Origin: Albugo candida
Lineage: Eukaryota
DNA length: 64,000 bases
NCBI GenBank assembly: GCA_040437565.1
Contig: JBDOQK010000008.1
Location: 310,001-374,000, forward strand
Reading direction: 5' to 3'
The translations under genes were made by a program, and so were the position numbers. Below, in pieces: positions 17,201 through 50,253 of this stretch; within the stretch, counting starts at the first letter, position 1, and every line of letters starts with the position of its first letter. The notes under the pieces were generated by a model. That model saw nothing but the letters and a program-made list of their open reading frames with translations. It was not told the origin of the DNA and made no database searches.

Positions 17201-17577
17201 CTAATCTTACTCTGCAGTATCTTAACATCGAAAGGTGTAACAAGATGACCGATGATGGAATTTTAGCATTCATTGACGACAACTTTACATTACAATCACT
17301 GAACATATCGTCCTGTAAATTAATTACTGACAGAGTAATGCTTTTCTTGATGAAAAGCTGCCCCAGGTTGCGAACATTGAGCATCGAGCTCTGTTCACAG
17401 ATTACACTAGCTAATATTTCAGCCCTGAGACGGAAAAGATCAAGTCTAAATGTTATATATTCGGATTTTGCGAAGCAAACTGGAGAAATATCAAAATTCG
17501 ACGCGGCTTTTCTATACAAGCCACAAGCACCTATCTACAATACGCGGAATTACAAGTCGGATACCAAATGTGATTGA
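8238..17577 (+). CDS. Large multidomain protein (~3,020 aa): coiled coil, IQ motif, CLU (clustered mitochondria) + CLU-central, LamG/ConA-like, C-terminal FBXL/RNI-type LRRs
   Basis: 2868-aa ORF 8971-17577 extends in frame to ATG 8238 if the gap-flanking duplicate (8454-8625 vs 8726-8896) is collapsed using the A8 copy. IQ: IQSRWRGKQGR. CLU: DWSGRLNQAL, GHEVRN, PLQCCVDTRGFRVLC, FARAMPPE, LRSEFV, LSPDA, MHRHGINVRHLG, EMVARTLKN. LamG: GYWPLSE, TLEAW, LRLYVNG, FQGLIAHVA. More than 12 LxxLDLSxCxxLTD repeats. Confidence 0.85.
8454..8896. repeat. Gap-flanking direct duplication (8454-8625 vs 8726-8896)
   Basis: Identical except an A8 vs A7 homopolymer; 100-N gap between the copies. Confidence 0.9.
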
Positions 17578-17796: not shown

Positions 17797-18224
17797 CCGA
17801 TGCGTAGCGAACTAGCCATAATTTGATGGTCGCAACCGCGTTACGTGTCCATCTGAGTAGCATGATTGCTATCATGTACCAATATATTCGTCCAAAGCAC
17901 AGCGGCCGCTGCACTACTTTGTTAAAAGTAACAGACTGGTCTTCCATATTTCGTTCGCAGNNNNNNNNNNNNNNNNNNNNNNNNNNNNNNNNNNNNNNNN
18001 NNNNNNNNNNNNNNNNNNNNNNNNNNNNNNNNNNNNNNNNNNNNNNNNNNNNNNNNNNNNCCGATGCGTAGCGAACTAGCCATAATTTGATGGTCGCAAC
18101 CGCGTTACGTGTCCATCTGAGTAGCATGATTGCTATCATGTACCAATATATTCGTCCAAAGCACAGCGGCCGCTGCACTACTTTGTTAAAAGTAACAGAC
18201 TGGTCTTCCATATTTCGTTCGCAG
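17797..18224. repeat. Gap-flanking direct duplication (17797-17960 = 18061-18224)
   Basis: Identical 164 nt on both sides of a 100-N gap. Confidence 0.9.
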
Positions 18225-19288
18225 CTGTCTCAGTATGTTCGCAAAGTGCACACGTGCACCCTTCTGAGCATATAGCTGATATTACCTCCAAGTCAGTAAA
18301 GCATGGCAAAATGAGGATTTCCAACAAGTGATCTTTCAATGATCATGATTTCTGTATAATCCGCTCGAGATGCGGTACTGAAGGTACCTATATGATCAGA
18401 AGTGCAGATTCCCTCTCGCTTATAGTGAATAGAGCGAAAAAAATATCAAAGGTGAAGCACGGCGGGGTATAAAAATCCTTCATCCCCTACAGCTCGAGTG
18501 TTTTGATTCTCCCGTGTGGCATTCTAGTTAAATTCTCCGAGATTATTGCTGCACTATATAAGGTTTTAGATGAGATGTCATTGTACTGATTTGAATAAAG
18601 ATTGTGAATGCTTTGTCACGTATCACGGCAATCTAGCTAATTTTGCTCGTCATGCAGGTTCCAGAGTGAAGATTATTTCATCGACTTTGCAGGCGCTGCT
18701 AGCGACAAAATAAAGATCAGGCCAATATATTGATGGTAAGACGACAATTACGTCAAGTCAACACATGCTACTCGAATGGTGCTAGTGTGGTGTCGACAAT
18801 GGCTGCTCATGAAGAGCTAGATTACAGCTAAAAGCTCGAAACTTTAAAGTTTAATAGAACCTTCAACGATTTCCGTTTATCGATTTGTGCCACTGAATAT
18901 TTACATACTTCTTGCACACAAGTCGTTCTGCTTCCGTCCGGAAATGATCTTTGCGATGCAGATGATGTCATATAACCGATTTTGTCACCAATGTAATAAT
19001 GTCGCAGGATCAATCGTAAGGCTCTCGCCAAATGTGTCTCTTTGTATCTTTCATCTAAAGCATAAAAATTCGAAATAGATCCCTGTACCATCAAGTCGCA
19101 GTCATACGACCGACTCCTTGGTTCGCTATAACATTCTCCATGCTATCATGCTTGATCAATCGATGCATGCGCATGTATCTAATCACAGGTGCAGCAACTG
19201 ATGATTGTATAGCGCTGCCAAATACTCAGAGTGAGATTATTACGTAGTCCGGATCGCAAAACATGATTTTGAGACACAGGGATTTGAG

Positions 19289-22200
19289 ATGCACTGGAGT
19301 GTGAACCCATCCAGTAATGCATCTTTATACACTAATGATCACTGGGTCAATGTTCCCGATACATCAATCTCTGTAACACTCCCTGCACCTATGTCAAGTT
19401 TTATTTCGTATTCTATTAGCGCAGCATATTCAATGAATCTGAAAACAGGTTCAATATACGACGTTAGCAAGGCAAAACACGACAACATAGTGGCATTTCG
19501 TATCCTTGTTGACGGCATCCCGTTTCGACAGTCCGGGACATCCATGGGTATATCTCAAAGTAATTTCAGTAGAACAAGTGGGTATCTTGGGATAGAGATG
19601 AGAGAAGGAAATCACATCGTAGCGTTGCAGTGGAGGAAAAGAGGGTCAATTGTTCGCTCATGGAGGCTTGTCAAAAATAAAATGGACGGCTTTCAGGGAG
19701 GGCGATTACTATTGATGTCATCGCATAAAAACACATTCCGGTACATACAGCCGCTCACAGAGGCCATTCTGATCTCCTCGACACAATGGCATCAAGTCAG
19801 AGATATGAAGCTGCGACTAAATTATGATTCCCAGACGAGGATTTACTTTTTTTATCAAATATTGATCACATCAGAATCATCACCTTACACAGGTATGAAG
19901 CCTCTTAATCCAACCTGACATGAAAGAATAAACTTTCCACATTATAGCAGGGATAAACGAAGGTACCATCGAGACGATCTTAATAATTAATGGTGCCAGA
20001 TATACGGAGACTCGGGCTTCTACAACATCGCTCGGAAAAGCTGTAAAATCACTTCGAGGAAGTGTAATACTTAAAGTGGATCCGGGTGAAGTCGTTGTAC
20101 TACTGCAATGGCGTCATAAATTTTTCTCGGAAAAGATTTGGCGATGCAGTCCTTCTATTGACGATGGATTCGAAATGGGAAGAATTCTAGGCGCGTTAAA
20201 CGATCACGTAATTGAAGCTCCGTCCGCATACAGCTCTTGGCTTTTTTATTATCCGAATATACAAAACTGGTCGATTGTTGGAGATTCTTTATCGAGTTTT
20301 GAATTGACGAACGCCACCCATGTTGAATTCACATACAGTCTTCCGATCAGTCAGAAAGGGAATCAGGATTCAGAGATAGGAAGACACACATCTTATGAGG
20401 CAATACAAAGCCGCATATTAGTAGATGGAATATGGTATCGTCATCAACATTTCATGGATGCGACCAGGAGTAGCTCTGATATGCAGGCAACATTAATTAT
20501 CCCGCTAGCAGGAGGTACACATACTGCCTGCGTCCTGTGGGAAAATAGAACTGACAATATGTGGAGATCAATAGTGGGTTCCTCCAGCCAATCTGTGCAT
20601 CTTCGTGTGACATTCCATCACAACGAACCAGTCATCTCGAGCCCGGTCTCTTACACAGTATTTGAAGATGAGGACATGGTATTGTCTGGTATCAATGTTC
20701 GGGACAAAAGTTTCTTGGATCTTATAGACTATATAGTGGAAGTCAATTTAGCTGTAGTGCACGGCACATTGATTCTACTTCAATCAGCCGGAGATGATAA
20801 TGAACAGACTGAGAATAATAGGTACTTCATGAGTGGTAAAGTCTCGTACATCAATGCGAGACTTGATCGGATTGTGTATCGTGCAAATTCAGACTGGAAT
20901 GGGCAGGATCAATTATCTTTGTTCGTACGATCCAAAGAATACGATGGAATCTCATCTAAGGTAGATACCTGTATTATTGATATACATGTCCAGCCAGTAA
21001 ATGATCCTCCTCAACTAGCTGTTCCTATGCAAATGATTCTACTCGAGGATGATAAGGTAGATATTTTTGGAATCAGTGTCTCTGACAAGGACATCGAGTT
21101 GGATCCGGTCACAAATCACAATATAGTGAGCGAATATATAGAAGTTTGGTTACACGTTGTTGATGGAGTCTTGGTGTTCCCACACGCTGGAAACCTTCAA
21201 GTTCTACAGGGAGACATTTCTGCCGACCAACTATTACACGTTCGTGGGCGCCTAAGCGATGTTAATTTGGCTTTGCAGGAAGTGGTATACTATCCTAGTT
21301 CGGATTATAATGCGCTACAGCATGAGGAATTTATTGGAATTCACGTGAGAGATGAAGAAGGAGCAGAAAGTGAGGCACAAATAGAACTGGTTGTCTTGCC
21401 TTTTGACGATAAACCATACCTCGAGAAGCGAGCAGCATTCAGTGTCGCGTTACAAGGTTACAAGTTGATCTTTGACGAATTTTTGACGAGCATGAAAGAT
21501 CAGAAAGCTTTTGTGAGAATGCAGACCGTGACAAAGTCTGGTAAATTGAAGCTAGCTCAAGGCTCTAGCAATTTCACAAGCGATTTGGAGTGGATTTCTC
21601 CCAACGATCCTCATATCAGCTCTTCATACTTGGAATTTGGAGGTTATGTACAAAAGGTTGCAAAATTTTTGGAGTCATTAGTTTATACTCGAGCCCCCTC
21701 ATTTGATGGATACGAGGTCATACATATTAGTCTCAGTCACCTACCAACCTTTTATGATTCACAACATTTCGTGATACAAATGGCGCTACAGACAGAAACC
21801 AGGAATCCTGTGATTCCCAAGACTCCAATCCGAATACGTCAGCTTCAGCCAAATAGAGGAAACTTCTTTGGTGGTACGCATATCAGCATTGTAGGGAGTG
21901 GTTTCTCTATCCTATATGATCTGTACGACACGCTCATGTGCAAAGTCGGTACCAACGATGCAGTTGTAGCTACTTTTCTGAATGATACCAACCTCATCTG
22001 CGTTTCTCCCAGTAATCGTCAGTCGAACAACGGCATTTCGGTCAACACGACCTTTCTGATGATAACCGATGAACACGAGCAGTTTTACACAAATCCATTG
22101 GCATATGTCTATGACAGTATATGGCAGCTAGGGGCTGTTTATCCGAAAGTTTTATCAGTAATGACAAGTACAAGGCTCAGGCTGCATGGTTACAATTTCG

Positions 22201-25200
22201 TCAACTTGGCTAGTTGGAGGTGCATCTTCGATAAGGCTATTGCAGTAACCGCGTATTTCATGTCTCCAAACCAGCTTGAATGCTTTGCCCCTCCGGCTCT
22301 CACAAAACAGCGAAAAAACATCACGGTACGGCTCACTAACAATGGGGTCGAAAGCTCGATGGCTTTCTTGCTCAGTTACAAAGGTATCGTGATCGGCATC
22401 CGCTATCAAGGGTTCAGACTTCTTATTACATTTTCTAGATATTCCGCAAATAAATCTGGTCGAGCCACTCACAAGCTTTTTTGGTGAAAGAGATATTAGT
22501 ATACGTGGAACAGGCTTTTGTTTGCACGAGCTGTACGAATGTATCTTTGACGAAAACTTCACATCCAGGGCGACTGTTTTGTCAAGCTACGATCTTTCCT
22601 GTCCGCAACCAGCTAATAGCAGGTCTCTCGACCAAAAATCGTTAATGTCGAATTTGAGTATCCGATACGGATTTGTTAGCATTCCTTCACCCAGAAGCAT
22701 CAACTTATACGGTACGCTTCCTTCGAATCTATACCCCGGCAATCATAATGCTTTTATATATCCCCAGCGCCCCCTGAAATCCAGGGCACAGAACCTCCTT
22801 TTGGTATCGCAAACGCAGTGCATGATATCATTCTTCACGGACACAATATGTCGAATGTATCAACGCTGTTTTGTCAGTACCATTCAACTGTGATCTCGAC
22901 GGTGCAAGCTATATATCTCAATTCCACCAGCATTCAATGTGCAGGTATACCTTTCCAGCAACCGCAGTCTAATTGGATTGGTGTGAGAGTTGCAACGCAA
23001 CACCACTTATATAATGGCGAAGGAAGTCACATGAAATGGTTCATGTTGCCATACTCAAGGTTACCGGAAGTAACGACTATTCTTCCACCATTCGGTTTGT
23101 CATCATCGGGAGGAAGCATTGAGGTACATGGCAACTATTTTAAACCGTGGTATTCCGCCAACTGTCATTTTGTGGAGCTCAGAATGTCAGTGAAGCTTCG
23201 ATTTACCTCGACAGTGAATGGAATCTGCGTTATACCCCGACTTCTCATTTTTCATCTCCAGTCTCAAACGATTCTCGTGGAAATACGACTTGTACTGCCA
23301 ATCGGAAAAGGATACGACAAAGAGATTACGCTTGCATCTTTCCCTTACATTTTACTTAAACCACTCAGAATTACTAGACTCTTTCCGCAAATGGGAGTTT
23401 GGTCTCCCAGTAGAAATCTGACTATTGTATTGGATGCCAATGTGACAGAAGCGCAGAGTCTTATCAATCATTCACATATTAAGTGTAGCTTTGGATATAC
23501 GACAACTCCGGCAATTGTGAGAAACCATTTTAACATCAGCTGCACTATGCCGAATCCTCCTGTAGGCAAAATGATGTCTATACCGGTCAAAATTATGAGT
23601 GGAGAACCTAACAATCAGAAATGTATATCCGAAACTAAAGCTACAAAAGAGACTTCGCTTGTTTTCTTGAACCCAGTACGAATCATTACTGTATTTCCAA
23701 AGCAAACAAGTGACGCTGGCAACGTATCGATCCAAGTTCGTATGAGTGGCCGAGTACTTGGGATTATTTACTGCTCGTTTGGCCCGAAACATTTTGTACC
23801 TGCCACCGTAGTAGAGCACAATCTTGCCTTTTGCAAAGCTCCAAGGTCTCAAGCCGGAACGAAATTACTTCGAATTATGAGTAGCGATTTGATTTTGCTA
23901 TCGCAAAACGCAGTTTTGTTCACTTATTATGTTCGACCAAAAAATGTCAGAATTCTCCTAAACCAAGGAGCTTTACTGGATTCAAATTCTCGAGTAAAAA
24001 TACAGACCAGCACGCATTTTGGCTTGGAAATGAATATAACATGCTTATTCGACGCTCCCTCTGGCAGATTCCTGTCCATTGCCTCACTGATAACAAAAGA
24101 TCTAGCCATTTGTCGCCTACCCTCTTCCCTTCGCTTTGCCTCAATTACTTTGAACGCCTCCGTTTGGATTGATGGAAGTAGATATGTGCATCATCATATT
24201 TTAAACAAAGTTGGAGGTATGAAAACCACGGTTCGGAACCCCGAGTATCTGCGCAGCTTTCTTACAGGAGGAATGGTGGTAGCACTCAGTGCAAGAATAC
24301 TTAATCCTGTTATCGGGATAACAAGTGAATCAGCTTCCTGCTATTGCCGGTTTGTAGGCGTGATAGTTCAGGCCACATTTTGCCAATTTGATAATTCCAC
24401 AGCATTGACTGTACTGTCCGAATGCATATCACCGCCAATGTTTTATCCGGAATGTGGATATCTTAGTTTCAGCATCAATGGTCAGGACTTTCATAAAGTA
24501 GAATCCACGTCCGGAATCGAGTACAAAGCCTCACCAATAATTGAATACTTCTTACCTCACGTTGGATCACGTCGTGGAGGTACAGATCTACTCATTCGAG
24601 GACAGGGATTTGATGCTCTTATTGAGTTGCATTGCCAATTTTCTTGCTACATGAGCGAGAACCTGAAAATTCGAAGACTTGGCACAGTCATCAACCAGAC
24701 GACGTTGAAGTGTAGTACACCCGCGTCAGAGGAGTTTGAGACTGAGTGCAATCACATTTGGACTGATGTAACTTGGGGAAAAGAGGCTTTCAATATGAGA
24801 TTTGATTCTTTATTCCATTATTGGAAGACACCTTCAATTTCATTATTGATATCTAGTCAAATTCCAGTAAATATGAACAGCAGTATCGCCATTCTCGGTT
24901 ACCCGTTTCCTCAATTCGGACATCTGCAATGTCGGCTCAGCTCATCAGGCCTCTTGTTACCAGCATTGTGGCTTTCTGCTGACAAGATTAAGTGCTATTA
25001 CACCGAGAATTCCGGTCAGATAGGGATGGATTCGCTAGATGTTAGTGTCAACGGTCAAGAATGGTCTAATAAACTGACTATCGACATTACAGAAGCGTTC
25101 GAGATCAAAGGGATTTTCCCAACATCACTGATTTCATGTGCAGTCGGCACAAAAGTGGTAGTTGAAGCTGGAGGTCTGATCACCAAAGGTCAGAATTCTG

Positions 25201-28200
25201 TATTTTGTCGTTTCAACAACAACAGCACAATCGCCGTGCGAATTGACAAAGGACATGTTGCGTGTATGATGCCGGATCTCCCTAACTCTACATTCACAGT
25301 GAATTTAGCACTTTTTGTTACCAATGAAGTGATGACTCCAGGAATTAGATTCCAATGTGTCGATCCACCTCGACTTCTGCAGGTACTTCCAACAATGGGG
25401 GTTATGAACGAATGGGGTATTAGATTCAATCTCTCGATAAGCATACCAACAAAGAGCTTCTTATCTCTTGACATCAGATTGTCATGCTGCATTTCATTTG
25501 ATAGAAAGCATTTTTGTCAACATGCCAGCGTTATCAAGATTGATGGTGACATAAGGCTACTAGAATGTTTATACAACAAGTTATATATTGAAGCGTTGTC
25601 GGAACCATTGCAAGCAAGAATAGCCATCGCGTTTGGATCTGATGAGAAAAGTGGTTTCATTTACTCAAATGAGCTTTTCGTCCTACTTTACCCACATATT
25701 ATGATCAATTCTGCGTTCCCTATGCAGTTGTTACTTCGAAGAGAATCGCATCCGTCAAAAATCAATGTGATCGGTTTAAACTTCGCAGGCGGATGTCATA
25801 TTGTGTGTAATCTTCAGCTGCAGGGCCAGCGATTTACTTACAACTATACTCTAAGCGCAATCCGTAAATCTGGGTCTCTTGTGCAATGCCTTTTTCCAAA
25901 CAGATCAATACTATCGACTTCGATGATGGATGCAAATCATTTGGTCGGGCGTCTTTCTATATATTTTGAAAACGTGGGATCATTCTTGGTTCCTTACAAC
26001 TTGACATTTTTACAGGAGCCTCAAATTTCTCGCTTGATGGTAACGTCAGAAAAATCTTTGGGACAGCGGAGATCATCACCTGAAATGTTTTTTTTTGGAA
26101 GATATTTCACCACTGCACTAAACTTGTCTTGTCATTACAAATTGGAATCGGCAATATTCTACGAGAAGGTTCACATCACTAATTCATCGACGATGATATG
26201 CAATTGTCCAGCATGGATCTATCACGCAGTGCATAAATTGAACCATAGCATCTCCTTAGAGCTTCATACAGCACTACAACCGTCGATGGTCTGGTCATCA
26301 ATATATGACTTTAATAATCAGCGCAATTTCATCACACCGTTACAGAGTAAGCTGCTTTTGAGTACAGAAAATTTTTGGTACATTGAACCGACAAAGGGCG
26401 ATTTAAGTGGGGGTACAGGAATTCAAGTTCAGGGGGCTGTGTTGCTGAATGCTCGCACAAGAAAAGAATCAATCATGTGCTGTTTTAACGCTCGCCTATG
26501 CACTCCATTAGTGTATATGATACCTCCTAAGAATGCCTGGTATTGCACGTCTCCTCCACATGCCGCATTAAACTCAGAAGACCTGGAGGTATCGATTGTA
26601 CTTAGAACGAAATCACGGAATTTGTTGGTGTCGGAAGAAGCAGTTTCATTCTACTATCGGCCTCTTCCAATTATTCGAAATGTTTATCCTCTTCGCGTCC
26701 TTGAATTCCCTCAAAATTTGTACATCATTGCGGAAAATTTCTACGACTATGCCGATGATCCGACCATTTCTTTCGAATGCTTGTTCGGTAACAGACATCT
26801 CAGGAAAGCGCTTTTCAAAGGGAGCAATGAGCTTCAGTGTGAAATACCTCGTTTGGATGGGAACAGAAGTGCGTCTAGCGATACGTTTCGATCTCACGCT
26901 AGTATAATAATGACAACATACGATATGTACTCAGAGAAATTCACGAGAAACATGCTAGAACCGCACACGATCCACATTACTTATGTTCGAGTACCTGATT
27001 TAGTCCGCGTGCATTCTGTCCGTGCAAAACGCTCATACGCTACTATTTCAAATCATTTTGCTACTTATTACGAGCTTGCAGTGGTGCTACTTGTCACATC
27101 ATTATATCCAAGTTCACTATCGTGCTGCCGTATAGCACTTGGTCCGATGTACATGAGCTCTTGGAATTTGACGATTGCTGATAATACACGGATCATGTGT
27201 CACTTCACACTTTTAAAAGAACAATATGCTTCTGGTGTCTCAATCAGTATCTCCTCCGACGGCATTAGCTTTTCCAATATAATCAAGGTCCCTTCGCCAG
27301 GCCAGAATATTACTGAATCCATCCCATCTGTATCTCGACTTCATCCATATTTTGGAATAATTGGGCAAAGCTCAAATGTTTGGATAATCTTGGAATCTAC
27401 AATAGAGTATGAAACAGCTCCGTTAGAATGCGTGATCGAGTACGACAAGAACGAGTTTATATCAAAAGTACTCTCACAAAACAATTCACATGTCGAGTGT
27501 TTACTACCCGTTTTTGACGACGGAGATAGCTTCGAGTCGATGACCAGAGAATTAGACGTTTCCTTGGCGGTGAAGGCGTATGTAGAAGATCATTCATACT
27601 GGAGACTACAAAGCAATCACTTCACGTTCAGATTGATACGTCAAGCAAAGTTGAGCCTGGGTTCTAATCGTGTGTTTGAAACGAAGGAATTAAGTATCCA
27701 GCTTACTGCCAGCGAAATCTATCCCTCGCATCTCGCACAATGTCAGCTTCGACAGCAGGAAAGCATCAAAAACTACATGGCTAGAGTAAACTTGATATCA
27801 AATACACAAGTGGACTGCATATTTTACGGGCACGTTCCATCGGAATCATACGTTGTATTGTTTTCCACAAACGGTTATCACTACGAAGAACTAGATACTC
27901 CTTTTTTTATTCAGAAGCCACCCATTATCAATCAAGTGTATCCTGCCACTGGCAGTGTGACCGGAAAATATGATATCTATATACACGGAAAGCATATAAC
28001 TGAGGACATCAACTTATGCTTTGACGATCAAGTCGTACTGCCTTCAACGAATTATGGTCAAAAGAGCGCCAAGTATTCTGTACCAGCGACATTTTATGCC
28101 AAAGCTATTTCGTTATTTGCTACGATTGCACCGAGCTGCAAAACATACCCTCTCGATTCTTCAGTTAGTGTCAAACTGAATCAAACATTCAAGTATTTGT

Positions 28201-31200
28201 CGAAACCAGTGATTTTAAGTACATTTCCAACGATGCTTACGGCAGTCAATCGACATTTTAATGACTATTTGGAGATAAGAGGACGAAATCTTGACAGCGT
28301 GCCTTCCATTTTATGCAAGTTTGAAGTCACAAATGATCTCCTTCTGAGTGAAAGCACTGAAACACTTTGGCAAAGCCCGACGAACGCAAGATGCCGATTA
28401 CCAAATTGGTCTTCTATTAATCGATCACTTACTATCCGAGTTACGTTTATCGATCACGCAATGCCGTCCAATACAAGTATAGGCTTCTCATTCCTGCAAG
28501 TGTTGCCTGCGTCGTACATCGAGCAGATTTACCCGCTTGCAGTCCCTATTTTGACTAATTCTTGGTTACCTTCTCAATCTTTTCGACTGAAAGGAAACTT
28601 CTCACTTGGTAATCAGCAAACAGTATGCCAGGCTTCGTGCAATAATCGGAGTAAAAGCTTGCCGGCGTTGAATCACATAGTTGGCAAAGTCACTGCATTT
28701 GAAAAACATTTTGTTGAATGCTCTCTTACTTTTTCTGAAGTGCCAGCAACATGTGATGTCACACTGTGGACAGCCGAAGGTAGCAGATTATCAAGTAATA
28801 GTGCCCGAGTTATTAATGCTTCGCCGATTGAGTTGAAAAAAGTCTTTCCTGCAAATTTTTTTAACAATGGTGAAGCACTTCTCAACATTCATGGATCGGG
28901 GTTTAATGTCGACTCTCAAATCCCTCTATATTGCTTTTTTGGGCACACTCATTTCTCAAGAGTCATTGTGTATTCTGATGAAGTATTGACCTGCAATGTC
29001 CCCATGCGTTTGCTAAATGAGCATGATTTTGATGGTGGAATTGATATGGATATGCATGTATCAACAATTGATTTCTCGCTCACTTCGAAAGTACAACATT
29101 TTACGCTTGGAAAGGCACTCAGGTTAGTATCTGTACATCCAAAAGCTGGCTTTTTCGGACAAGAAATCCTACTTCATATTCGACTGTCAAAAGCTTTGGT
29201 GAGTTTGGAGATGAAATGCATTTTCACGTCCTTGCAGAGGCATGAAAGCGCAGTTGCGTATCTAGGAATTGAGAAAATGGTAGTGCATTGCTCAGTCCCA
29301 AGGGGACTTCCGGTTGATGAGTATAATGTTGGAATTGCGGCACCTAAACTCGGCAGAATTCAAAATTCGACCTTATTTTATACAATTCTGGATAGACCAA
29401 TTCTGATCTCAATTTCTCCACCTAAAGGTTTCGTCAAGTCAGATAAAGGTGCAAAGAAACACTTAATGACCTTGCAAGGATCGAAATTTGCAAACTCAAT
29501 TCACCTTAGTTGCAAATTTTATCCGAAAGATGATATGGGATCTCAAGGCTTTGAAAAGAAATATGAGAATACACCGATGCACGTACTAAGTCCATCGCTT
29601 GCCCAGTGCCACATTCCATCTCATTTAGAGATCGGCCAATACATCGTGCGTGTGGTGGCGAATAATGCAATGGAAACAGCTCCTCACGCAATTACGTATG
29701 CTGAGAGACTGAAAATTTACGAAGCTCTCTCACCTATGTCAGCCTATGATATAACTTCTCTGAGAGGTTTTGAATTTGGAGGAACAATCATACGTGCTCA
29801 CGGCGTATTCTCTACCCAGTCTAATGGTGCTTTGGAGTGTGTTTTTGGTAACAGAGGTGTCTTAGCTTCCATCAAAAATAACTCTTATATGGAATGTGTG
29901 TCACCTCCAATGCAAGTTTCAAGAATACCATTCATGATACGGATATACGCAAATGCAGTGGCGCTTGCCAATATCATAGGCCCCAAAGCTGAATTCCAGT
30001 ATTTGAAAGCACCAACAGTAGAAAGAATTGCTCCCTTGCTTATCACCAGAAGTAATCGCAATGTGAGCATCATCTTGTACGGTGAAGCATTGAGTGTCAA
30101 TGACTTAGATGGCTGTTTGGTCGGAGGAGTATTTTATCCCTTGGAAGAAATCAGTACTGGTCGACTCGAAGTTCAGATAAATGTGTCAAATATCGGCTCT
30201 TATTCTGTTGTACTGGTCATCGCTAACAACATTAATCCCTTACTAGACACACTCCAGCACATTCAAGTTGTTCCCCAAATCATTCCAGTTTACATGACAC
30301 CAGATCGATTCAACGAACGTGGAGGACTACAGGTACTGATTTCAGCAATTCAAATCTCAAAGTTTGCAATCTCAATTCATTGTCGTTTCGGAAATGTAAC
30401 TGTGGAAGCATTATGGGCCTCTCAGTCACAGGTTTTGTGCACTACACCCTCGCACCAGCCTGGCTCAATCAAAGTATCCCTTAGCCAAGATGGTGAGATC
30501 ACGTGGTCTAGTGTAGATCTATATGGAGAAGTGTATCGAGCAGCAACACTTCTAGACGTTTGGCCAAATTCGACCACACTCAGAGGTGGCACCTTACTAT
30601 CAATCAGTGGTATAGGATTTCACGAAACAACACCACGATCAAATTTTCGCTGCCTTTTTTATTACAAAAATATTGTTCCGCTCGAAGCTGATGCGATATA
30701 TCTCACGCAGAACATGGTTCGATGTCGAGTTCCAGAATTGTTTGCGCCCGTGCATAGAGACATGGTTGAAGCACAGACACTCGTTATGGAATTGAAACTA
30801 TCATTGAATACTTATGAACTGGCAACGAATAGCTTGGTAATCGAAGTGCATCACGCGCCAGTATCTCTATGTCTTCTACACATTTCTTATGGTCAAAATC
30901 AAGGAAGCTCTTCTCTAGAAGTGTTCATTTCTGGTCGGTATTTTCTGAAGGATCTACACAGCGAATTGGAATGCCGATTTATGAACGTCCGTGCATCCGG
31001 CTACATTGATGTCACAAATAGTACCCATTTAAAGTGCACCCTCCTTGATCAAAGCTTATTCGATCGACCGATGCATGGCCCTAATTATGTCGCGATATAT
31101 CACAATGACAATCTCTTACTCAAAGAAAGTTTAGGTGACTCAAATTTCCTGCGCCCTATTCAAATATATGGAACTTCTCTCATCAATGGCAAGATTAGTC

Positions 31201-40200: not shown

Positions 40201-43200
40201 TAGCATGGTCCAAGCCACAGGATGGGCAAATAAAAGTACGATAATTTGCACGACAGAAGCTCATGTCGACGGTGCTGTACCTTTCTCTATCTCTTACAAC
40301 GGGCGGGACTGTGAGACACACCCTAGCTCCCTGTCAACTTACACATTTGAGCCCACCCCAAGAATCCAGTCGATTGACCCATCTATTTTTTGTAGAGAAG
40401 GAGGAACTCAGGTCATCATACGAGGTTCTTTTTTTCTTCCTAACAAAAGCATGGCTTATTTTGGCCAATTTTCCTCCTCCGACTGCCAGTATCGGTCAGA
40501 TACTGAATTGCATTGCGTCGCTCCAGCTCAATCCTCACAGCAGGCAGAAAGGTTGGCGAGGGTAAGTAACAATAGACAAGATATGTCAATTGATTCAGTG
40601 GAGTTTGATTATGCACCATTGGAGCAGGTTCGAGCCGTACATCCTCACTATCTTGTCATAGATTCTCACGGCTGCGAAAGATACCAGCAAGATAAATATG
40701 TTTCCGTTGTAACACGCTTTGCCAGAAACACTCAAAATCTCAAATGCATCTTCACATTCAGCCCAGGCAGCCCAGAAAATGAGCATGAAGCATACGTAGA
40801 AGCTGTGTTTGAAAGGTCTGATTTGGTATATTGTTTGCGCCCAACAAATCATTTGGTGATGTCGATCATTCCTAAACCACAGCACATGGAATCAATATAC
40901 AGAGTTCATGTGCACGTGAGCAACGACCCTGGTGTAAAGTCCATCACCTTTGCTTTGATTGAAATCGTACTTGCTCCAGTGGTATACAAAGTAAATCCAC
41001 TCATCACATTCGTGAATCAGATGCAAAAGATCACCATAATGGGCACAAGATTGAACGGCGTTTCTCATTGCCGATTTGGAGACCAAAAAGTCTCGGTTTT
41101 CACCAATAATTCCTTCTTAGTATGTGACTCTCCAAAGTATCAACGAGAAGGAAACTTCTCATTCACATTACTGACAGATGCAAAGACTGCTGTGTACTGC
41201 TCGAGACAGGATTTCCAAGTCGTCAGTGACAATCACGTACCTCAGAAAATCAATGGAAGACGATCCATGTTACCACCGAATATATGGAAAGTCTCAGCAT
41301 CACAACTTCCAAATGCAAGTGAAGTCAATTTAATTATACAAGGACGGAATTTTCGAAATACTTGGGAACTCAAATGTCGCGTGGGGAAAAATCATATTGC
41401 AAAAGCATTTTACAAGACCAGTAACGAGATTATTTGTCCCGTTCCATCGACAAAAAGACNNNNNNNNNNNNNNNNNNNNNNNNNNNNNNNNNNNNNNNNN
41501 NNNNNNNNNNNNNNNNNNNNNNNNNNNNNNNNNNNNNNNNNNNNNNNNNNNNNNNNNNNGAAGCTCATGTCGACGGTGCTGTACCTTTCTCTATCTCTTA
41601 CAACGGGCGGGACTGTGAGACACACCCTAGCTCCCTGTCAACTTACACATTTGAGCCCACCCCAAGAATACAGTCGATTGACCCATCTATTTTTTCTAGA
41701 GAAGGAGGAACTCAGGTCATCATACGAGGTTCTTTTTTTCTTCCTAACAAAAGCATGGCTTATTTTGGCCAATTTTCCTCCTCCGACTGCCAATATCGGT
41801 CAGACACTGAATTGCATTGCGTCGCTCCAGCTCAATCCTCACAGCATGCAGAAAGGTTGGCGAGGGTAAGTAACAATAGACAAGATATGTCAATTGATTC
41901 AGTGGAGTTTGAATATGCACCATTGGAGCAGGTTCGAGCCGTATATCCTCACTATCTTTTCATAGATTCTCACGGCTGCGAAAGATACCAGCAAGAGAAA
42001 TATGTTTCCGTTGTAACACGCTTTGCCAGAAACACTCAAAATCTCAAATGCATCTTGATATTCAGCCCAGGCAACCCGGAAAATGAGCATGGAGTATACG
42101 TAGAAGCTGTGTTTGAAAGGTCTGATTTGGTATATTGTTTGCGCCCAACAAATTATTTGGTGATGTCGATCATTCCTAAAACACAGCACATGGAATCAAT
42201 ACACAGAGTTCATGTTCACGTGAGCAACGACCCTGGTGTAAAGTCCATCACATTTGCTTTGATTGAAATTGTACTTGCTCCAGTGGTATACAAAGTGAAT
42301 CCACTCATCACATTCGTGAATCAGATACAAAAGATCATCATAATGGGCACAAGATTGAACGGCGTTTCTCATTGCCGATTTGGAGACCAAACAGTCTCGG
42401 TTTCCACCAATAATTCCTTCTTATTATGTAACTCTCCAAAGTATCAACGAGAAGGAAACTTCTCATTCGCATTACTGGCAGATGCAAAGACTGCTGTGTA
42501 CTGCTCGAGACAGGATTTCCAAGTCGTCAGTGAAAATCATGTACCTCAGATAATCAATGAAAGACGATCCATTTTACCACCGAATATATGGAAAATCTCA
42601 GCATCACAACTTCCAAATGCAAGTGAAGTCAATTTAATTATACAAGGACGGAATTTTCGAAATACTTGGGAGCTCAAATGTCGCGTGGGGAAGGATTATA
42701 TTGCAAAAGCATTTTACAAGACCAGTAACGAGATTATTTGTCCCGTTCCATCGACAAAAAGACAGCTCGAGATAGAAGTCTCTAACGATGGGGTCACATT
42801 TTCAAGGTTCAGAAACATATTCAAAATACAGCAAGAAGTATACATTAGTAAATTGCACCCTAGCAGAGGTTCCGTTCTCGGAGGAACGGTAGTAACGTTT
42901 CATGGTAGTAATCTTCAAGATGAAGAATCATTATTTTGCCTATTTGGACCCACAGCTACCCCGGTCGTGAAAAATGTTAACAACAGTCAGATTGTGTGCA
43001 TTACACCCCAAAAGACAGGCACTAAGATGATAGTAGCAGCTGGACTTTGTACAGAAAAAAAGGTGCTAATCTCAAATGAGCTCAATTACACTTATACAAA
43101 TGCTCAGCAACTGATATCAGTCACACCGTCATCAGGAACTCAACTGGGTGGGACACCAATCTTGATTGGAGGAAGATACCCAGAGATCACATCCTTCGAG

Positions 43201-46200
43201 GCCATAGTGCTTTGCCGATTCATCTGCATGTCACAATCCGAAACTAGCGAGTCGGATATTTATACCTTCAGCGGCGTATTCAGGAATTCGACACATGTTG
43301 CATGTACGACTCCATCAGTAAAACAATCAGGATCATATCGTATCCAGGTAAGCACCAACGAAGGAGGCGATTTCAGCACTTTTTCATTGTTGTATGACTT
43401 TGATGAAGAAATCTGGATTTCACGGATTGTACCGAATCTCGGTCCAGCGCTGATAGCGGACACAATTATTACTGTTCATGGCTCCGGATTCATCAGGAGT
43501 AAGGACCTGAGTTGCTTCTTTAATGATGTTGGCACATCAGCAATGTGGCAAAGTAATACCACCATCACATGTCGCTCGCCCTCACACGTGCCCAATCAAT
43601 TCGTGCTCCTTCGGATCAGCAGCAATGGCGTGGATCTATCAGATATGTCTGTCAGCTATTTTTACCACCACGATGTCAGCATTACTTCATTTTCGCCTTC
43701 AGTCGTGCCATCAATCGGTGGGACTCCAATCTACATCCAGGGTCGCAATTTTCTCGACCACCACTTGCTTTCTTGTCGATTTGGAGATAATATTGTAAAA
43801 GCAGCTTTTATATCTGAAACAGCCTTGGTTTGTATTACTCCGCCACGAATTCTTACTACTGGCCATCGTTTTAAACAAGAGAAGGTTTCCTTGGAGGTGA
43901 GCCTCAATCGTGTTGATTTTACGAATCTTGGCGTACCGCTGGTATACTCACTCAAGTGCCCCACGAAGTCGTATTGTTCGTCTAATGATTCTACGATACG
44001 GTCTTGTCTGGCAGGACATATGTGTCCAGGAGCCTTCGCCAGTGGCAGCTCCATTCCATGCCTTCCAGGGTCATTCCAGCCTCAAAATTTGCGCTCACAG
44101 TGTGCAACATGCCCCGTTGGCTTCTATTGCCCCTTTTTTGGAATGTCAGTCCCGCTTTTGTGTCCAGAAGGACGAATATGTGACTCTCATGGAATACGTA
44201 TGCCACGAATCTCATGCCCACAAGGTTACTACTGTAAAGGAGGCACAAAATCAGCTGAAACACTTGATGTAGTCTTGTCTGATGCTAGTGACAACGAGGA
44301 GCACATTGGACATGCTGTCCCTCATCTAAGCTGGCACACTGGCATAAGAAGTAGTCAACGCCATTATATCAATACTCTCGTCAATAACAGTCTAGGAAGT
44401 GAATCTCGATCCGATAGGTCCATGACCTTCACTTCCATACGTGCCCTGCAACTTGAAAAACCTTATCCATGTCCCGTCGGGACCTACTGCATGGGTGGCG
44501 TCAAAACTCAGGTTCATATACCCGGAAAGCTCGATACACCACAAATTTGCTTTGATGGTTTCTATTGTCCATCAAGTTCGTCAACACCCGAAGGACAAGG
44601 CGCATGTCCGACGGGTTATTACTGTCCCACACCTACCGATGCTATTGGGTGCCCAGTTGGATTTCACTGCCCTGGTCTTGGGAATGTAAAGCCAAAACCT
44701 TGCATTCCTGGATCGTACAATCCATTTCTGCGACATTCAAGTTGTGCAATCTGCCCTGTCGGATTTACGTGTCCTCACTGGAATATGGAACGTCCGATAC
44801 CATGCCCTGCTGGATTTGTGTGCAATACGGCTGGTCTACCAGTACCCGTCTTGCTTTGCCCCCCTGGATATTATTGTGAGGCTGGTACACAGACATCAGA
44901 TCCTCAAGATAGTTCTCTTTATCGTCCAAAGCCTTGCCCAAAAGGAACCTATTGTCTTGGTGGTGTTGCACATAATCGTACAGTGGAATGGCTTCCGACT
45001 CAACCAGAAGGAGCAAAAGCTCCGCAGATATGTGCAGAGGGTACTTACTGTAAGAAAGCAACAACGAGCATTGCAGGGACCCAAATATGTTTCCCTGGCC
45101 ATTACTGTCCTCCGGGAACGGATTTTCCTGTGCAAGTATCTGTAGGCTCATATGCTGCCTTACCGGGGTCCTTAGCTTCAAGTCTGTGCTTTCCGGGAAC
45201 ATTCACGTCGTTACGTGGAGCGACAAAATGCGAAGTATGTCCAGCTGGGTATACTTGCCCATACTATGGAACTTACATTCCGTCAATCTGTCCCGAGGGA
45301 TACTATCGGTCAGTACTGGATGGTATAACTTGTCGTCCATGTCCGAAAGGTACCTGGTCGTCTCGAACGGGTCTCACAGACATATCATTTTGTGAAATTT
45401 GTCCTGCTGGTATTCAATGCAATAGCATTGCGACATCGAATCTGTCATTCGCTAGCTTTTGTGCACCTGGATACGTATGTGGAGAAGGGACAACCGAAAA
45501 AGACTACATGAGTCATTTGTGCTCTGCTGGTGAATACTGTCACAATGGAACCACATCGGTGACACAACACGATCGTGCATGTGACCCGGGATACGTATGT
45601 ACCCGTGGCACGAAGAATCAAGAGAAGAATCGTAACGAATGCCCTGTTGGATCGTTTTGTCCTAGTGGTACTTCAAACCCGTCAAGTAATTATCTGAGTT
45701 GTCCGAAAGGTACGTGGGCGAATACGGGGGAAAAAGATATTTCGGATTGTGCTATTCGGGCGGTCGACGTATGCGATCGAGATGATGCTAATCGTTATTA
45801 TCAACGATTTAGTTACAATCACAAAGGAAAACGTGTACATTTTGATTCAACTTATGAAAGCTCGAGCACTGGAGAAGTAGAAGCAGTCAAGGTCATCAAT
45901 CCAGTGATAACATCTGAATCTACTCTATTCTGGCGAAATGACACGGTTGAAGTTTTCCGAGTGTGTCCCAGTCAAATGGTAACGAGTGGTGGGTTGACTG
46001 TGACAATCATTGGAAAGCATTTCTATGATACAAAACGTATAACATGTCGCTTCCTGGTGGCACAAGTACTCGACATACCCCAGGATGTGCCTGCATCGTA
46101 CATTGATAGCACTCGAGTACAATGTCGTGCTCCACCCTTGAGCAGCTTTGGAATTGAAGAGGAGGTTAAAGATATACACATTCGTGTGTCCAATTACGGT

Positions 46201-49200
46201 TTGATATTCTCGGAAACATTTTCCACGATCAAGTACGTATCAGACAAACTTTTTGCGTCGAATGATCTCGAAGCCGACCTCGGACCTTGCCTCAGTTCTG
46301 ATCTATATGAAACAAGTGAGAGAATTACAAATGAAAGAAAATGGATCAGTCTTCGGGGTCTATCAAAAGCAACGATATCTTTTGATTTTCGACATATTCC
46401 ACCAGATCTTATCTATGACGAGCACTACAAAGTTGCCGTATATGTGCAGAATTCCACATGTCCATACCAGCCTTGCTCTGGTAGCACCCCGATCCAGCCA
46501 AATGGGGGCGACTTTTACACATCCCCATGTCGTCTCCCATTAAACCTTCCCGAATGGTTCACATCTTCAAACGTGGACAAACACGACACCATGAATTTGA
46601 CTCTATACGCACTCGAAGATGTAATTTTCAATGTTGAAATTCACATTTTAAATGGCCTCTATAGTGCTTCAGCCTCTTTGTTTTCGGAAACAGCGGATAT
46701 ACATATCAGCTCCCCAAGTCGTAGTAATGTGACGCTAGGGAATGCCGACGCTGCAACTCGGGCGCTATCCACATCTATAACACCCACCCAAGAAGAAGTC
46801 AAACAGGATTACACATTCTTAATCGCATACTTCGCAGCAGATGCTGATTATACATTGGCTCCACTTAATCTTCCACCCAAGTATCAGAGTCTCGAACGTG
46901 GGCGTGTCCTGGTAAGTCACAACGTCAGCAATCAAAGCCATCATGTACCGCTGATTCTTGATCCTGACCAAGATCTATTAACTTCAGAAAGCTACTGGCA
47001 GCTACCGTATGCCACAGCCGCGATGACATACGATATGGTTCTAAAATACCGGGAAATATATCAAGAGATGTATGCGGATCCTAGCGACCCAACACGAACG
47101 CAACACAATTTCGCATTTCGTAAAGTACTTCTTCCCTACTTACCATTTTTTTCAAACTGTATGGAGTACGATTCACACATACCTATATTTGATCTACTAG
47201 AAAACGATCGTTGTGCACTTCCTCCAATTACATCTGAGTTGGAAGGATATGGGCGAAACTGGTGGCGACGGAAATTTGCTCCGCTTCCAAATCAGGACAA
47301 CATCGACTTCGTGGGTCCATTAGATTTTATGCGAGAACCTGTTGCGGATACGTGCAATTTGGCTATTCAGTGTCATTATGAGGAAGATCTGGCAAACACT
47401 CCTTCGATATCTCGTTGGTTTGAGCAATCGCAGGACACCAAACTCTTTTACTTTCTTCGAGAAGCTGCCGCATTTGATGATTTTTTACAGAATGGAAAAT
47501 ACTACGATAAACTTTTGGAGAGTCATGGATCTGATTACTTTATTCCGGTCACTGTTGATACGTCTGGGAATACGCTAGAAGGGGACTGCACACATGGCTG
47601 TTTTCCTCGTAAAGTGACACTGAGGATATCCTACTACCAAGTCACGAAATCGTTGAAGCGAATCATCAAAGCATTCTTGGTTTATGAAAATTACGACCGA
47701 GATTTTACAAAAAACGATTACGTTCTACAAGTAGATTACTCCGCACTTGGCTACATGCAATTGATTATCCAGTTTGCGTTCGAACGTCAAGTATTCATCA
47801 CTCTATTTATTTTCAACGGTGGTGTCATCATTTGTCTTTCTTTCATGTTTTGGTTTCTTCATATCATGACAGCACTAATTGAATCGAAAAGTACCCCCAA
47901 ATTTCGATTTTGGAGCATGCTAGCCCTGACAGCTCCTCCAATCGCTGCTGGCAGTGTCATTGCCATACTTCCAATTTCCTTGATTATCGCGGCATTCTAC
48001 TACCTACTGAATGGAATACACGGACGGGATACAGACATTGCAAATCCATGGCTGCTAGATCATATTGTAAAGCACTACATTGATGCACAGACTGACTCGG
48101 GAGAACTACAAGCAACAAGATATGGCCGAAGTGGATTCTGCTTTTTTGTACTCGCCTCATACCTCATTTTCTTGAGCACGACAATCTTTATATCACAGTC
48201 AGTGTCAATCTCTGAAAGTGCTTTGCAAGAAAAACCGGGTGAAGTGCGCAAAACGCAAACAATATGGTGGCCAACACAATGGAAAAGGGCAAATATGATA
48301 TTCACGACCATAATTCTTTGTGTTGGATTAGTTCTTCTGATCGAATTCTCGTTTTGGTCTAAATTCGGGCAATATCTGTGGTTTGTGATTATAGGACTTG
48401 AATTGCTTGCGCCGATCATTGAAGGGTTATTGACCAGACAGCTAAAAGAAGCATTATTGGTTGCTCCTTTAGCATCCTCCTATGCACTTGTATCGGGATT
48501 GATCACCTTTGGTGCGTCGGATTTCAAGGACTTTGTAGTGGGTAACCTGCTGGATTTTGGTGTTTCTTTGATAGAAAGAGTGTATTTGGATACCTCCATC
48601 GAAGGGACGAGAGGATTTGTGGGCCTCATACTAAGGAAAACAATGCATTATGGTACCATTTCAATTCGAAACCTCAGATGCCAAGTCCGAGACTTGACAC
48701 AACGAGTAAACAAGTCAGACCGAACACATGATTCCGACAAAGAGAAAGTATTACCGAAAAGCGCACCTGCCGACGACCACGAGAGTGAAAAAGAACACCA
48801 GACCGTTGAACCCATCATTGAGTTTTATATTGGGCATTCTATGGATAAACTTGCCGTATTTTATCAGCCGGTATTGATAATCCTGATGATTCTGTTTCGG
48901 AATGAATTACAATTACCAATTCTATACAATATCCGCGAGAAAGACATGGAATTCTACCTATGGTACTCCTTGATCATTTTGTTATTCCAGGTCGTTAGCG
49001 ATGCGTTTGTACTACATGTTGTAGAATGCTTCCGAGGATGGAAGCTATACGATTATTTGGTGTATTCGCGTTATCGATTTCTGCACCGGGAACATGCATG
49101 GAAAGGTATGGAACCGTATCTGGACGAATGTATTGAGCCGAATTTGCGAACTTTGGACCAGATGTGCTTCTCATCACAACTATTTCTAATGTGTACTCTC

Positions 49201-50253
49201 CACATGACCGGGATTGTTTTCTTCGTGTTCGCAATAGAGATTATGGTACGCTGGAAGTACAATTTTTTCGGCGATCCAGCTGCGATAATTCTGGCAATCT
49301 TTGTCATAATGGCGTGCAAATTTGTTAAGCATACGACCTTATTCCTATCCGCGCGGATAAACTTTCGAAATTACACAAATGAGAGCAATGCTTGGACTAC
49401 GGACGCTCGAGGTGAGGATGAATTTGGGATTCCAAAATGGGAAGACATCGAAAAGTACAACGAAGCATCACACGAAGCCTACTTGATGAATCAGAGAATC
49501 ACGACAGAGACATTTCGAAATAGGTTTCTGGAACACAATCGTTCGTGGCTCATTGAGCAACTTCCGACAATGTTCACACCACGCACAATTGGTCGAACTC
49601 GGCCGCTTTTGCTGGAACAGTTTTCAAGTATCGTTGAGGCTTTCCAATCAGCTAGTTCTGGTAGCGATGAAGACGAAGATGATGAAATTGACGGAAAACC
49701 GATTTTTGGTCCCATTAGTCTGTCGACTTCATCAAATATTATGATACAATTGTGGCTAGCACAAGCAAGAAGACTACAAAGACTCCAACGAGCAGTACAA
49801 CCGATACTACAACAGGTTCGCAAAACACAATGTGAGATGTGTCTCAGCCATAGACATCTCCAGATACAGATGCTGCATTCCATTAATGATATTGGACAGC
49901 AGTTTGAAAAGGAATCATCCTCTGAAAGCTTTGATGTTGCCGCTTGGAAGGAATACTTTAGAATCAATCAGAGATTCAAAACCATCTGTATCAATTGCAT
50001 CAAGTATCTTCGCGAGCGTGATACAAGTGCCTTCAACTTCATCCCGGATCGACCAGAAAAGGATATACAGGCGACATATCGGCGAATGACTGCACCATCC
50101 AATGCTATGATGCAAAAGTGGTATTCCGAAGCGAAATGTCGCCTACCTCATGGAGGTCAATACTCGCACAATTGGAAAGAGGCTCCCGTCCAATTAGATG
50201 CAGCATCCTTTGCTCTTGCTAGGAGGTGGCTTTATGCCGTCCGTCAACCATGA
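19289..50253 (+). CDS. Giant (~9,300 aa) IPT/TIG-repeat, cadherin-like, GCC2/GCC3 Cys-rich, multi-pass membrane protein
   Basis: Exons 19289-19892, 19951-22383, 22439-22711, 22768-50253, with GT-AG introns of 58, 55 and 56 nt. Each splice restores the next ORF frame. Gap-overlap offsets of 613, 964 and 1304 nt match the frame shifts between ORFs 22818, 31792, 35372 and 41434. Collapsed CDS is 27,915 nt (9,304 aa). Repeated PxxGxxxGGTxVxIxGxxF...CxFG...CxSP units (IPT/TIG), VNDPP cadherin-like motif, CPxGxYC repeats and C-terminal TM helices. The true start may lie upstream. Confidence 0.82.
31384..32509. repeat. Gap-flanking diverged duplication (31384-31896 vs 31997-32509) within the giant gene
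   Basis: 513-nt copies with ~13 substitutions and 6 amino-acid differences counted by eye. Confidence 0.88.
34530..36357. repeat. Gap-flanking diverged duplication (34530-35393 vs 35494-36357) within the giant gene
   Basis: 864-nt copies with ~16 amino-acid differences counted by eye. Confidence 0.88.
40256..42763. repeat. Gap-flanking diverged duplication (40256-41459 vs 41560-42763) within the giant gene
   Basis: 1,204-nt copies with ~29 amino-acid differences counted by eye. Confidence 0.88.

Follow-up and report, generated by a model that had tools for sequence, protein, structure and literature searches.

How many genes lie behind seven consecutive open reading frames (ORFs) that change frame from one to the next and are interrupted by runs of N? 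The question arises at a locus of Albugo candida (GenBank assembly GCA_040437565.1, contig JBDOQK010000008.1) within a window of 64,000 nucleotides (nt; positions 310,001 to 374,000 of the forward strand), by which we mean the whole stretch of DNA analyzed and whose own numbering, starting from 1, is used throughout. A first-pass annotation, made from the sequence letters alone, had placed the seven ORFs on the plus strand, where they were present (19235-19918, 19932-22487, 22393-22893, 22749-32090, 31792-35499, 35363-41869, and 41425-50253), and had read them as parts of one gene for a giant receptor-like membrane protein. Our data showed one gene at the locus, transcribed, spliced, and without real gaps, whose product of ~9,335 amino acids (aa) is predicted to carry a long array of TIG domains, a Cys-rich block, and a C-terminal membrane module and is probably among the largest proteins of Albugo candida.

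The first line of evidence is arithmetic. Every change of frame between the ORFs was explained by three GT-AG introns together with three offsets at the gaps (613, 964, and 1,304 nt), whose remainders modulo 3 (1, 1, and 2) equal the frame steps between consecutive ORFs, and because introns and offsets account for every frame change, the ORFs can be read as one gene. The three introns claimed earlier (19893-19947 and 22384-22438, 55 nt each, and 22712-22767, 56 nt; all GT..AG and phase 1) were found, and the 27,915-nt coding sequence (CDS) claimed with them agrees with the length obtained here from the methionine at 19289 after collapsing the overlaps, namely, 27,918 nt with the stop codon, or 9,305 aa (residue numbers below are counted from this methionine). 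The start itself needed correction, as described below, and the corrected model from ATG 19140 measures 28,008 nt with the stop codon and encodes 9,335 aa (1,047 kDa, ~1.05 MDa), without an internal stop over 28,005 nt. It consists of five exons and four short GT-AG introns, all on the plus strand: exon 1 (19140-19188; 16 codons and the first base of a split codon), exon 2 (19248-19892), exon 3 (19948-22383), exon 4 (22439-22711), and exon 5, which the assembly presents in pieces (22768-31896, 32510-35393, 36358-41459, and from 42764 through the last TIG domains of the main array at 43920 to the stop codon at 50251-50253). Pieces 2 and 3 of exon 5 were placed by colinearity with an Albugo laibachii protein and by a TIG profile, and piece 4 by the TIG profile.

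What, then, are the gaps? The window contains 12 runs of exactly 100 N, three of them within the locus (31897-31996, 35394-35493, and 41460-41559), and at each of these three the sequence before the gap was repeated directly after it: 31384-31896 at 31997-32509 (513 nt, 97.5% identical, offset 613), 34530-35393 at 35494-36357 (864 nt, 96.6% identical, offset 964), and 40256-41459 at 41560-42763 (1,204 nt, 96.7% identical, offset 1,304), with no indel between the copies in any of the three. The offsets proposed in the first-pass annotation were thus borne out, and its gaps turned out to be unmerged overlapping contig ends, 96.6-97.5% identical. Abutting overlaps were present at 8 of the 12 gaps in the window, so the duplications reflect a habit of the assembly rather than biology; the scaffolder put 100 N between contig ends that overlap, and nothing is missing in the gene. 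In the corrected model, the 100 N and the second copy were therefore skipped as assembly artefacts at all three places (31897-32509, 35394-36357, and 41460-42763). Across each of the three gaps, the aligned residue ranges of the A. laibachii protein overlap as well (2604-2773, 3450-3737, and 5017-5416), which shows that this protein has one copy of each duplicated stretch. As a check for stop codons hidden in the filled gaps, the collapsed CDS was read with either overlap copy and remained open in both versions, which differ in 82 bases and 51 residues.

The difference of ~3% between the copies in the gene is as expected of two haplotypes. Between these copies, which look like haplotypes and belong to the TIG array, 51 of 858 codons show nonsynonymous and 27 synonymous differences, a high share of nonsynonymous changes. 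Five gaps outside the gene (7452, 8626, 17961, 54743, and 62239) have shorter overlaps of 123-255 nt with 99.4-100% identity, and no abutting overlap was found at the remaining four (3540, 51248, 56018, and 59721). Similar overlaps may have caused false splits of other genes in the assembly.

Contigs from four public sequencing runs (X1, X2, X3, and X5), aligned to positions 18061-31896 only, provided the second line of evidence. A 7,712-nt contig of X1, which is unbroken over 22767-27026, and a 5,430-nt contig of X2 were both spliced at exactly the three predicted introns, whereas the X5 contig, which is DNA (40,062 nt), kept the introns, spanned 18061-31896 whole, and extended beyond both ends. 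Such precise removal of GT-AG introns in the long X1 and X2 contigs is best explained by spliced transcripts. Of 30 bins in the aligned region, X1 and X2 each covered 29, X3 covered 20, and X5 covered all 30. A further X1 contig of 3,868 nt placed its first 328 nt on 31569-31896, and the remaining 3,540 nt continued 3' of 31896. Two apparent skips in X1 and X2 contigs within the first overlap copy (31498-31569, 70 nt, CC..TG; 31787-31847, 59 nt, CT..AC) are not bounded by GT..AG and probably represent another haplotype or strain too unlike to align, not introns.

Against this background, we regard it as very improbable that the locus is not one working gene, being instead a row of adjacent genes, a decaying pseudogene, or a scaffolding chimera. 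Suspicion of this kind is raised by the fragmentation of the assembly (12 gaps in 64 kb), by the short transcript contigs past 27026, and by the contig alignment that stops at 31896. Neither the short X1 and X2 contigs 3' of 27026 nor the X3 stretches without cover carry weight either way. On the other side, the CDS is free of stops, the contig ends overlap exactly, the 40-kb X5 DNA contig runs across the first 13.8 kb and farther, expression is evident from the spliced contigs, and, in A. laibachii and others, single long proteins match the locus colinearly. The claim of one giant gene is supported by the open CDS, the colinear A. laibachii protein, and contigs spliced at the predicted sites.

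The same contigs corrected the 5' end. One contig each in X1 and X2 joined 19188 to 19248 (aligned joint 19186->19246, cut +2), a splice that is absent from the X5 DNA contig, and this fourth intron (19189-19247, 59 nt, GT..AG; intron 1 of the corrected gene) puts the start of the gene upstream of 19289, the start assumed in the first-pass annotation, which now lies inside exon 2. The X1 and X2 contigs extended 5' to ~19090, and the frame through the 19188/19248 junction was open from 19059, the preceding in-frame stop lying at 19056. The first in-frame ATG, which is also the first ATG after the 5' end of the contigs at ~19090, is ATG 19140, most likely the start codon. There are 27 open codons 5' of this ATG, and an uncharged hydrophobic stretch of 13 residues, from 19119, straddles it; the stretch resembles a signal-peptide core that lacks a start codon ahead of it. 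Farther upstream, the region 5' of exon 1 (18523-19090) was covered by X1 (depth 18.8) and X2 (depth 6.7), and a 104-aa ORF on the minus strand (18828-19142) had no Pfam match.

Is the protein known elsewhere? Its closest relative, CCA22724.1 of A. laibachii Nc14 (P0024 in our set; 7,926 aa, "conserved hypothetical protein"), was colinear with 23571-50250 of the window, and the 998-aa C-terminal query aligned to it over residues 1-998 with 81% identity. With these last 998 residues as query, cluster representatives numbered 1,051 at E<=0.001; 632 of them reached E<=1e-10, and 302 reached E<=1e-30. Many are 6,000-7,900 aa long and match at their C-terminus; a search with profile A1 among proteins of 3,500-5,000 aa returned three known relatives. 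Members were found in Phytophthora, Pythium, Nothophytophthora, Aphanomyces, Triparma, Cantina, and Bigelowiella and, among alveolates, in the dinoflagellates Polykrikos and Yihiella and the ciliate Litonotus, the relatives of the C-terminal part with its transmembrane (TM) module thus including stramenopiles, dinoflagellates, a ciliate, and a rhizarian. In all 49 of the fetched relatives of at least 3,000 aa that hold the module, it was C-terminal and followed CxxGx[YFW] repeats and TIG domains, the number of the latter varying from 2 to 53. Conserved family motifs, HGWK, CFSS, and FGDP among them, are present in the Albugo candida protein, and a quick tree of the membrane core placed it beside a Phytophthora fragariae protein and a close relative of the latter.

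By their sequences, these proteins form an unnamed family that spans stramenopiles, alveolates, and rhizarians, the three groups of SAR, and whose constant part comprises the Cys-rich stalk, a TIG domain, a beta-rich juxtamembrane domain, the multi-helix membrane module, and a tail with two CxxC pairs. The A. laibachii protein and XP_008870714.1 of Aphanomyces invadans (7,478 aa; of the oomycete 'IPT/TIG domain-containing' type) are orthologues with the same domain order, although ~1,400 aa, with the beta repeats, cadherin-like units, and first TIG domains, are missing from the N-terminus of their models, and the Albugo candida model is the longest family member found in this analysis. It had been expected that automated annotation would break such a gene into several unrelated hypothetical proteins: this is true of Phytophthora, where most models are pieces of 1,385-4,058 aa, but not of A. 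laibachii and A. invadans, where the gene is annotated as single. In the literature, we found no paper on a family combining TIG domains, a Cys block, and a multi-pass module, or on its accessions (bioRxiv supplements being outside the search). A zoospore membrane proteome of Phytophthora parasitica (PMC12223298) lists PPTG_03357, a 1,910-aa Ephrin-receptor-like membrane protein for which no tie to the family emerged.

The domain order claimed in the first-pass annotation was recovered from N- to C-terminus as three beta repeats, cadherin-like units, TIG domains, a block with 55 Cys, one more TIG domain, a juxtamembrane domain, helices, and a tail. The three beta repeats (residues 1-440, ~145 aa each) begin in exon 2, which holds the first and the start of the second, and continue in exon 3 to ~20663; they resemble each other (pairwise BLAST E values of 1.6e-9, 6.8e-6, and 0.004) as well as the N-terminal ends of P0047 and P0048, both long relatives, and they matched no Pfam family. 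About three cadherin-like units follow (residues 405-830, ~20556-21833), with Cadherin_4 scoring 22.8 bits, below its cut-off of 25.1, and with a resemblance to repeats of P0169 and P0171 ("VCBS repeat-containing protein"). The N-terminal piece had three matches among proteins of up to 4,055 aa, and a sequence search of the PDB with the N-terminal part yielded no relevant match.

The main TIG array (21834-43920) starts in exon 3, continues through exon 4, which holds one TIG domain, and fills most of exon 5. The Pfam TIG family (PF01833) exceeded its 20.9-bit cut-off in five of the seven ORF pieces (E values of 4.7e-13 to 2.1e-98), and a profile built from the protein itself detected 60 TIG domains where dozens had been claimed, 59 of them in residues 831-7195 and one at 7873-7958; six holes of 109-138 aa in the array may hold further TIG domains, giving 60-66 in total. 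Mean pairwise identity among the copies was 19.5% and the maximum 41% (1,764 pairs), and a search for tandem repeats at the DNA level in the array returned no rows; judged by this divergence, the copies are old. Both Cys are retained in the TIG consensus. The array is followed by the Cys-rich block (43921-45951; 677 aa, 55 Cys) with repeats of the Ephrin_rec_like (GCC2/GCC3) type. Of the earlier claim of a GCC2/GCC3-type block, the Cys-rich block itself stands, whereas the family assignment remained below the cut-off here (five stretches, 18.5 bits versus 23.1), with PF07699 present in many relatives according to precomputed annotation. The isolated TIG domain claimed after the block, number 60, occupies 45952-46209.

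These parts point to the outside of the cell. The conserved Cys pairs of the TIG domains, the 55-Cys stalk, and the signal-peptide-like N-termini of three relatives (P0173/P0060, P0143, and P0056) argue for an extracellular array, and it is highly probable that the long N-terminal part forms an extracellular filament of a few hundred nanometers with a binding head of beta repeats and cadherin-like units. TIG domains measure ~4 nm each, from which the length of the filament would be estimated at 200-300 nm.

What anchors such a filament? The isolated TIG domain is followed by a conserved beta-rich juxtamembrane domain (46210-47784; 536 aa), identified from alignment A3, in which columns of Cys and Glu are invariant, and from a structure model with a predicted local distance difference test score (pLDDT) of 80.3 and a predicted template modeling score (pTM) of 0.82; it is 84% identical to that of A. 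laibachii, its structural matches were weak, and searches of the ESM Atlas and of PDB sequences returned nothing relevant to this domain. The multi-TM bundle claimed earlier then occupies 47785-49359. An AlphaFold model of the 998-residue C-terminal part, built from a 64-sequence alignment (mean pLDDT, 81.7; pTM, 0.73), placed 11 helices (TM0-TM10 in OSCA numbering) between query residues 177 and 701, the sixth being 63 residues long. The distribution of Lys and Arg is consistent with an extracellular N-terminus and a cytosolic C-terminus (N-out/C-in): basic residues cluster in the loops that would then face the cytosol, and such a topology is what the huge ectodomain and the CxxC tail require. 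Acidic residues (E in TM3, D and E in TM8, and D before TM10) were kept in 90-100% of the aligned relatives. The predicted cytosolic tail (49360-50253, ~300 aa), which contains the acidic patch and the CxxC...CxxC module (~49762-50025) described in the first-pass annotation, together with a basic helix and the stop codon, carries two CxxC pairs that are 83-97% conserved.

No Pfam family covered the membrane module in any of 20 members. ABC-2 permease (PF12698, ABC2_membrane_3) was rejected as a candidate with 26.1 bits against a cut-off of 31.6, a match seen in the window protein alone among the 20 members. No internal duplication of the module was detected with hhalign, PDB sequences gave no relevant match to it, and the ESM Atlas returned unnamed oomycete clusters at 0.80.

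Structure comparison was more suggestive. When the model was run in VIA-align against 48,161 representatives, the matches spanning >180 residues were TMEM16F (7.1; 256 residues), TMEM16A (6.7; 260), TMC-2 (6.7; 182), TMC-1 (6.4; 216), and OSCA1.2 (6.1; 281). In a second comparison, the top multi-pass membrane proteins among the 579 best chains of Foldseek were nhTMEM16 (four entries with values of 7.0-7.9, 7.0-8.1, and 269-285), Ist2 (6.8, 3.7, and 157), and afTMEM16 (6.3, 7.9, and 291). The OSCA alignment started at model residue 180 and those with TMEM16 and TMC at 204-225, a difference of one helix. As described in PMC6235563, OSCA1.2 has 11 helices, an N-terminus outside and a C-terminus inside, and an extra "TM0" relative to TMEM16. 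The earlier start of the OSCA alignment fits this extra TM0 and the N-out/C-in topology, and the model matches the OSCA type of topology (11 helices, N-out/C-in) provided that the charged sixth helix spans the membrane. Besides the extra first helix and the topology shared with OSCA, a long sixth helix running into the cytosol resembles the TMEM16/OSCA/TMC proteins; in contrast, the Albugo candida protein has no sequence or profile similarity to them, lacks the large cytosolic domain that OSCA has between TM2 and TM3, and alone carries a giant ectodomain of ~8,500 residues, which no described TMEM16/OSCA/TMC member has. We consider the chances evenly balanced that the module, with 11 helices and N-out/C-in topology, adopts the fold of the TMEM16/OSCA/TMC channel-scramblase superfamily.

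The explanation that we favor for the locus as a whole, tentatively and with somewhat less than even confidence, is a single giant gene whose product extends a filament outside the cell and carries a TMEM16/OSCA/TMC-like module gated by this tether. Several observations weigh against it. Foldseek against the PDB gave nothing (best E value, 0.033; TM-scores, 0.04-0.13), and the root mean square deviation was high for most of the fold matches listed above. None of 20 members matched the Pfam families for TMEM16, OSCA, and TMC, which we take to be Anoctamin, RSN1_7TM, and TMC, at E<=10, and profiles A1 (E<=1) and A2 (E<=10) found no TMEM16, OSCA, or TMC chain among PDB sequences. The putative sixth helix is amphipathic with several charges, and if it did not span the membrane, the module would have 10 helices and the tail would lie outside. 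No signal peptide was seen from ATG 19140 or from 19289, nor was any exon bearing one seen in 18061-19139 (the flanks of the gap at 17961-18060 overlap by 164 nt, so no exon can hide there), and the first 30 residues from ATG 19140 lack a hydrophobic core (best 10-aa Kyte-Doolittle mean, 1.21); export of the N-terminal part is thus unproven for the Albugo candida protein. Finally, the read alignment covers 18061-31896, transcript continuity over the 3' 18 kb being represented by the one X1 contig that runs past 31896, and the RNA status of X1 and X2 is the guess of the tool.

How such a protein might work can be sketched in a few steps. The head, made up of beta repeats and cadherin-like units, would attach to an extracellular target, a pull or binding on the filament would be passed via the rigid stalk and the juxtamembrane domain to the 11-helix module, the module would open a path for ions or lipids, and the signal would continue through the predicted zinc-binding CxxC tail. 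This receptor with its own tether, in which pull or binding opens an ion or lipid path and signals through the tail, is a proposal that we consider unlikely as it stands. If the module is tethered in this way, the protein would be a single-polypeptide counterpart of the hair-cell tip link and TMC. The wider possibility that the family constitutes a new branch with the TMEM16/OSCA/TMC fold, in which a channel or scramblase module fused to an extracellular tether of a few hundred nanometers lets SAR cells turn surface pull or contact into an ion or lipid signal, seems quite unlikely on present data.

Would the filament do the work alone? In the main alternative, a passive giant adhesin or surface fibril, the array and its head would be the working parts (in adhesion, spacing, or a coat), and the membrane module would only anchor, sort, or oligomerize, with no part in transport or gating; we judge this somewhat unlikely. 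Most of the mass consists of Ig-like repeats, the 60 TIG domains, the cadherin-like units resemble repeats of bacterial surface proteins, the ratio of nonsynonymous to synonymous codons given above is as expected for a fast-evolving surface protein, and structural matches to the membrane module are weak. The pattern of conservation argues otherwise. Identity to A. laibachii was 64-67% in the TIG array, 73% in the Cys block, and 83-84% in the juxtamembrane and membrane parts, and the corresponding values for two more distant long relatives (P0205 and P0025) were 21-28%, 47-52%, and 52-58%, so that conservation rises toward the membrane, making the membrane-proximal core the constant, constrained part of the protein and the array its variable part. 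Juxtamembrane domain, module, and tail are the best conserved parts and recur in oomycetes, dinoflagellates, a ciliate, and a rhizarian even as the number of TIG domains varies, and conservation reaches 90-100% at the charged positions within or next to the helices; a simple anchor needs neither such residues nor 11 helices.

The favored explanation, a tether-gated module, also has to be set against the cysteine repeat modular proteins (CRMPs) of alveolates (Apicomplexa and ciliates), to which the first-pass annotation had likened the protein when it proposed, by analogy, a surface sensor that might couple contact to encystment or secretion; the structure comparison points to TMEM16/OSCA/TMC instead. 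That the family is a stramenopile counterpart of CRMPs, coupling contact sensing to regulated exocytosis by descent or by analogy, is improbable in our view. The idea draws on a similar outline, a Cys-rich ectodomain with Ephrin-receptor-like repeats followed by a multi-pass C-terminal core, on the alveolate members of the family (Polykrikos, Yihiella, and Litonotus), and on the secretion of oomycete zoospores on contact. According to PMC9670195 and PMC9815656, CRMPs are proposed contact sensors for exocytosis in which Cys-rich Ephrin-receptor-like or EGF parts are followed directly by a conserved core of nine helices. The Albugo candida protein, by contrast, has 11 modeled helices that begin 620 residues after the Cys block, and it has a conserved tail of 300 aa, whereas CRMPs end soon after the last helix without a CxxC tail; CRMPs also lack a TIG array. 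A crude motif look-up found no match for HGWK, CFSS, or FGDP in the CRMP sequence supplements, and in an equally crude test, three CRMP-core motif patterns taken from supplement file 6 of PMC9815656 had no match in the 9,305-aa protein. The fourth pattern, FRYI, had a single match, which falls at residue 150 within the N-terminal beta repeats, outside the membrane module. With helix count, the spacing from Cys block to helices, and these crude motif tests in both directions telling against it, kinship with CRMPs is unsupported, and the resemblance appears to be one of layout.

Animal proteins offer partial parallels. Tandem extracellular IPT/TIG domains with a conserved Cys pair are shared with fibrocystin/PKHD1, PKHD1L1, plexins, and Met, which are single-pass proteins with G8/PbH1 or Sema/PSI domains. 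The Albugo candida protein has 10-11 membrane helices in contrast to the single pass of fibrocystin/PKHD1, and G8, PbH1, Sema, and PSI were absent from the Pfam listings for the pieces of the gene. Polycystin-1 is alike in outline, its long row of Ig-like repeats leading to a membrane part of 11 helices; the Pfam listings for the gene pieces contained no REJ, GPS, PLAT, or PKD-channel domain, and no polycystin chain was among the matches listed by the fold searches.

The locus thus yields a corrected full-length model with expression evidence, in which the assembly gaps hide nothing, and an entry to a large family (1,051 cluster representatives) present in all three SAR groups that has neither a name nor a Pfam model for its membrane core. 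If the TMEM16/OSCA/TMC fold is true, this would be the first such module physically joined to a long extracellular filament, which would open tether-based gating to direct tests in microbes. Should the fold match prove spurious, the core would still be a good structural target, since it models with high confidence yet matches nothing solved.

Just upstream of the giant TIG gene, a separate ORF of 2,897 aa (8884-17577, plus strand) has matches to CLU, eIF3_p135, Laminin_G_3, and leucine-rich repeats; it ends at 17577 and is distinct from the giant gene. Three other ORFs on the plus strand carry ordinary eukaryotic domain sets, namely, FYVE and START domains (528-2045), ankyrin repeats and a VATC treble-clef domain (5048-5875), and G-patch and GCFC domains (56955-59333).

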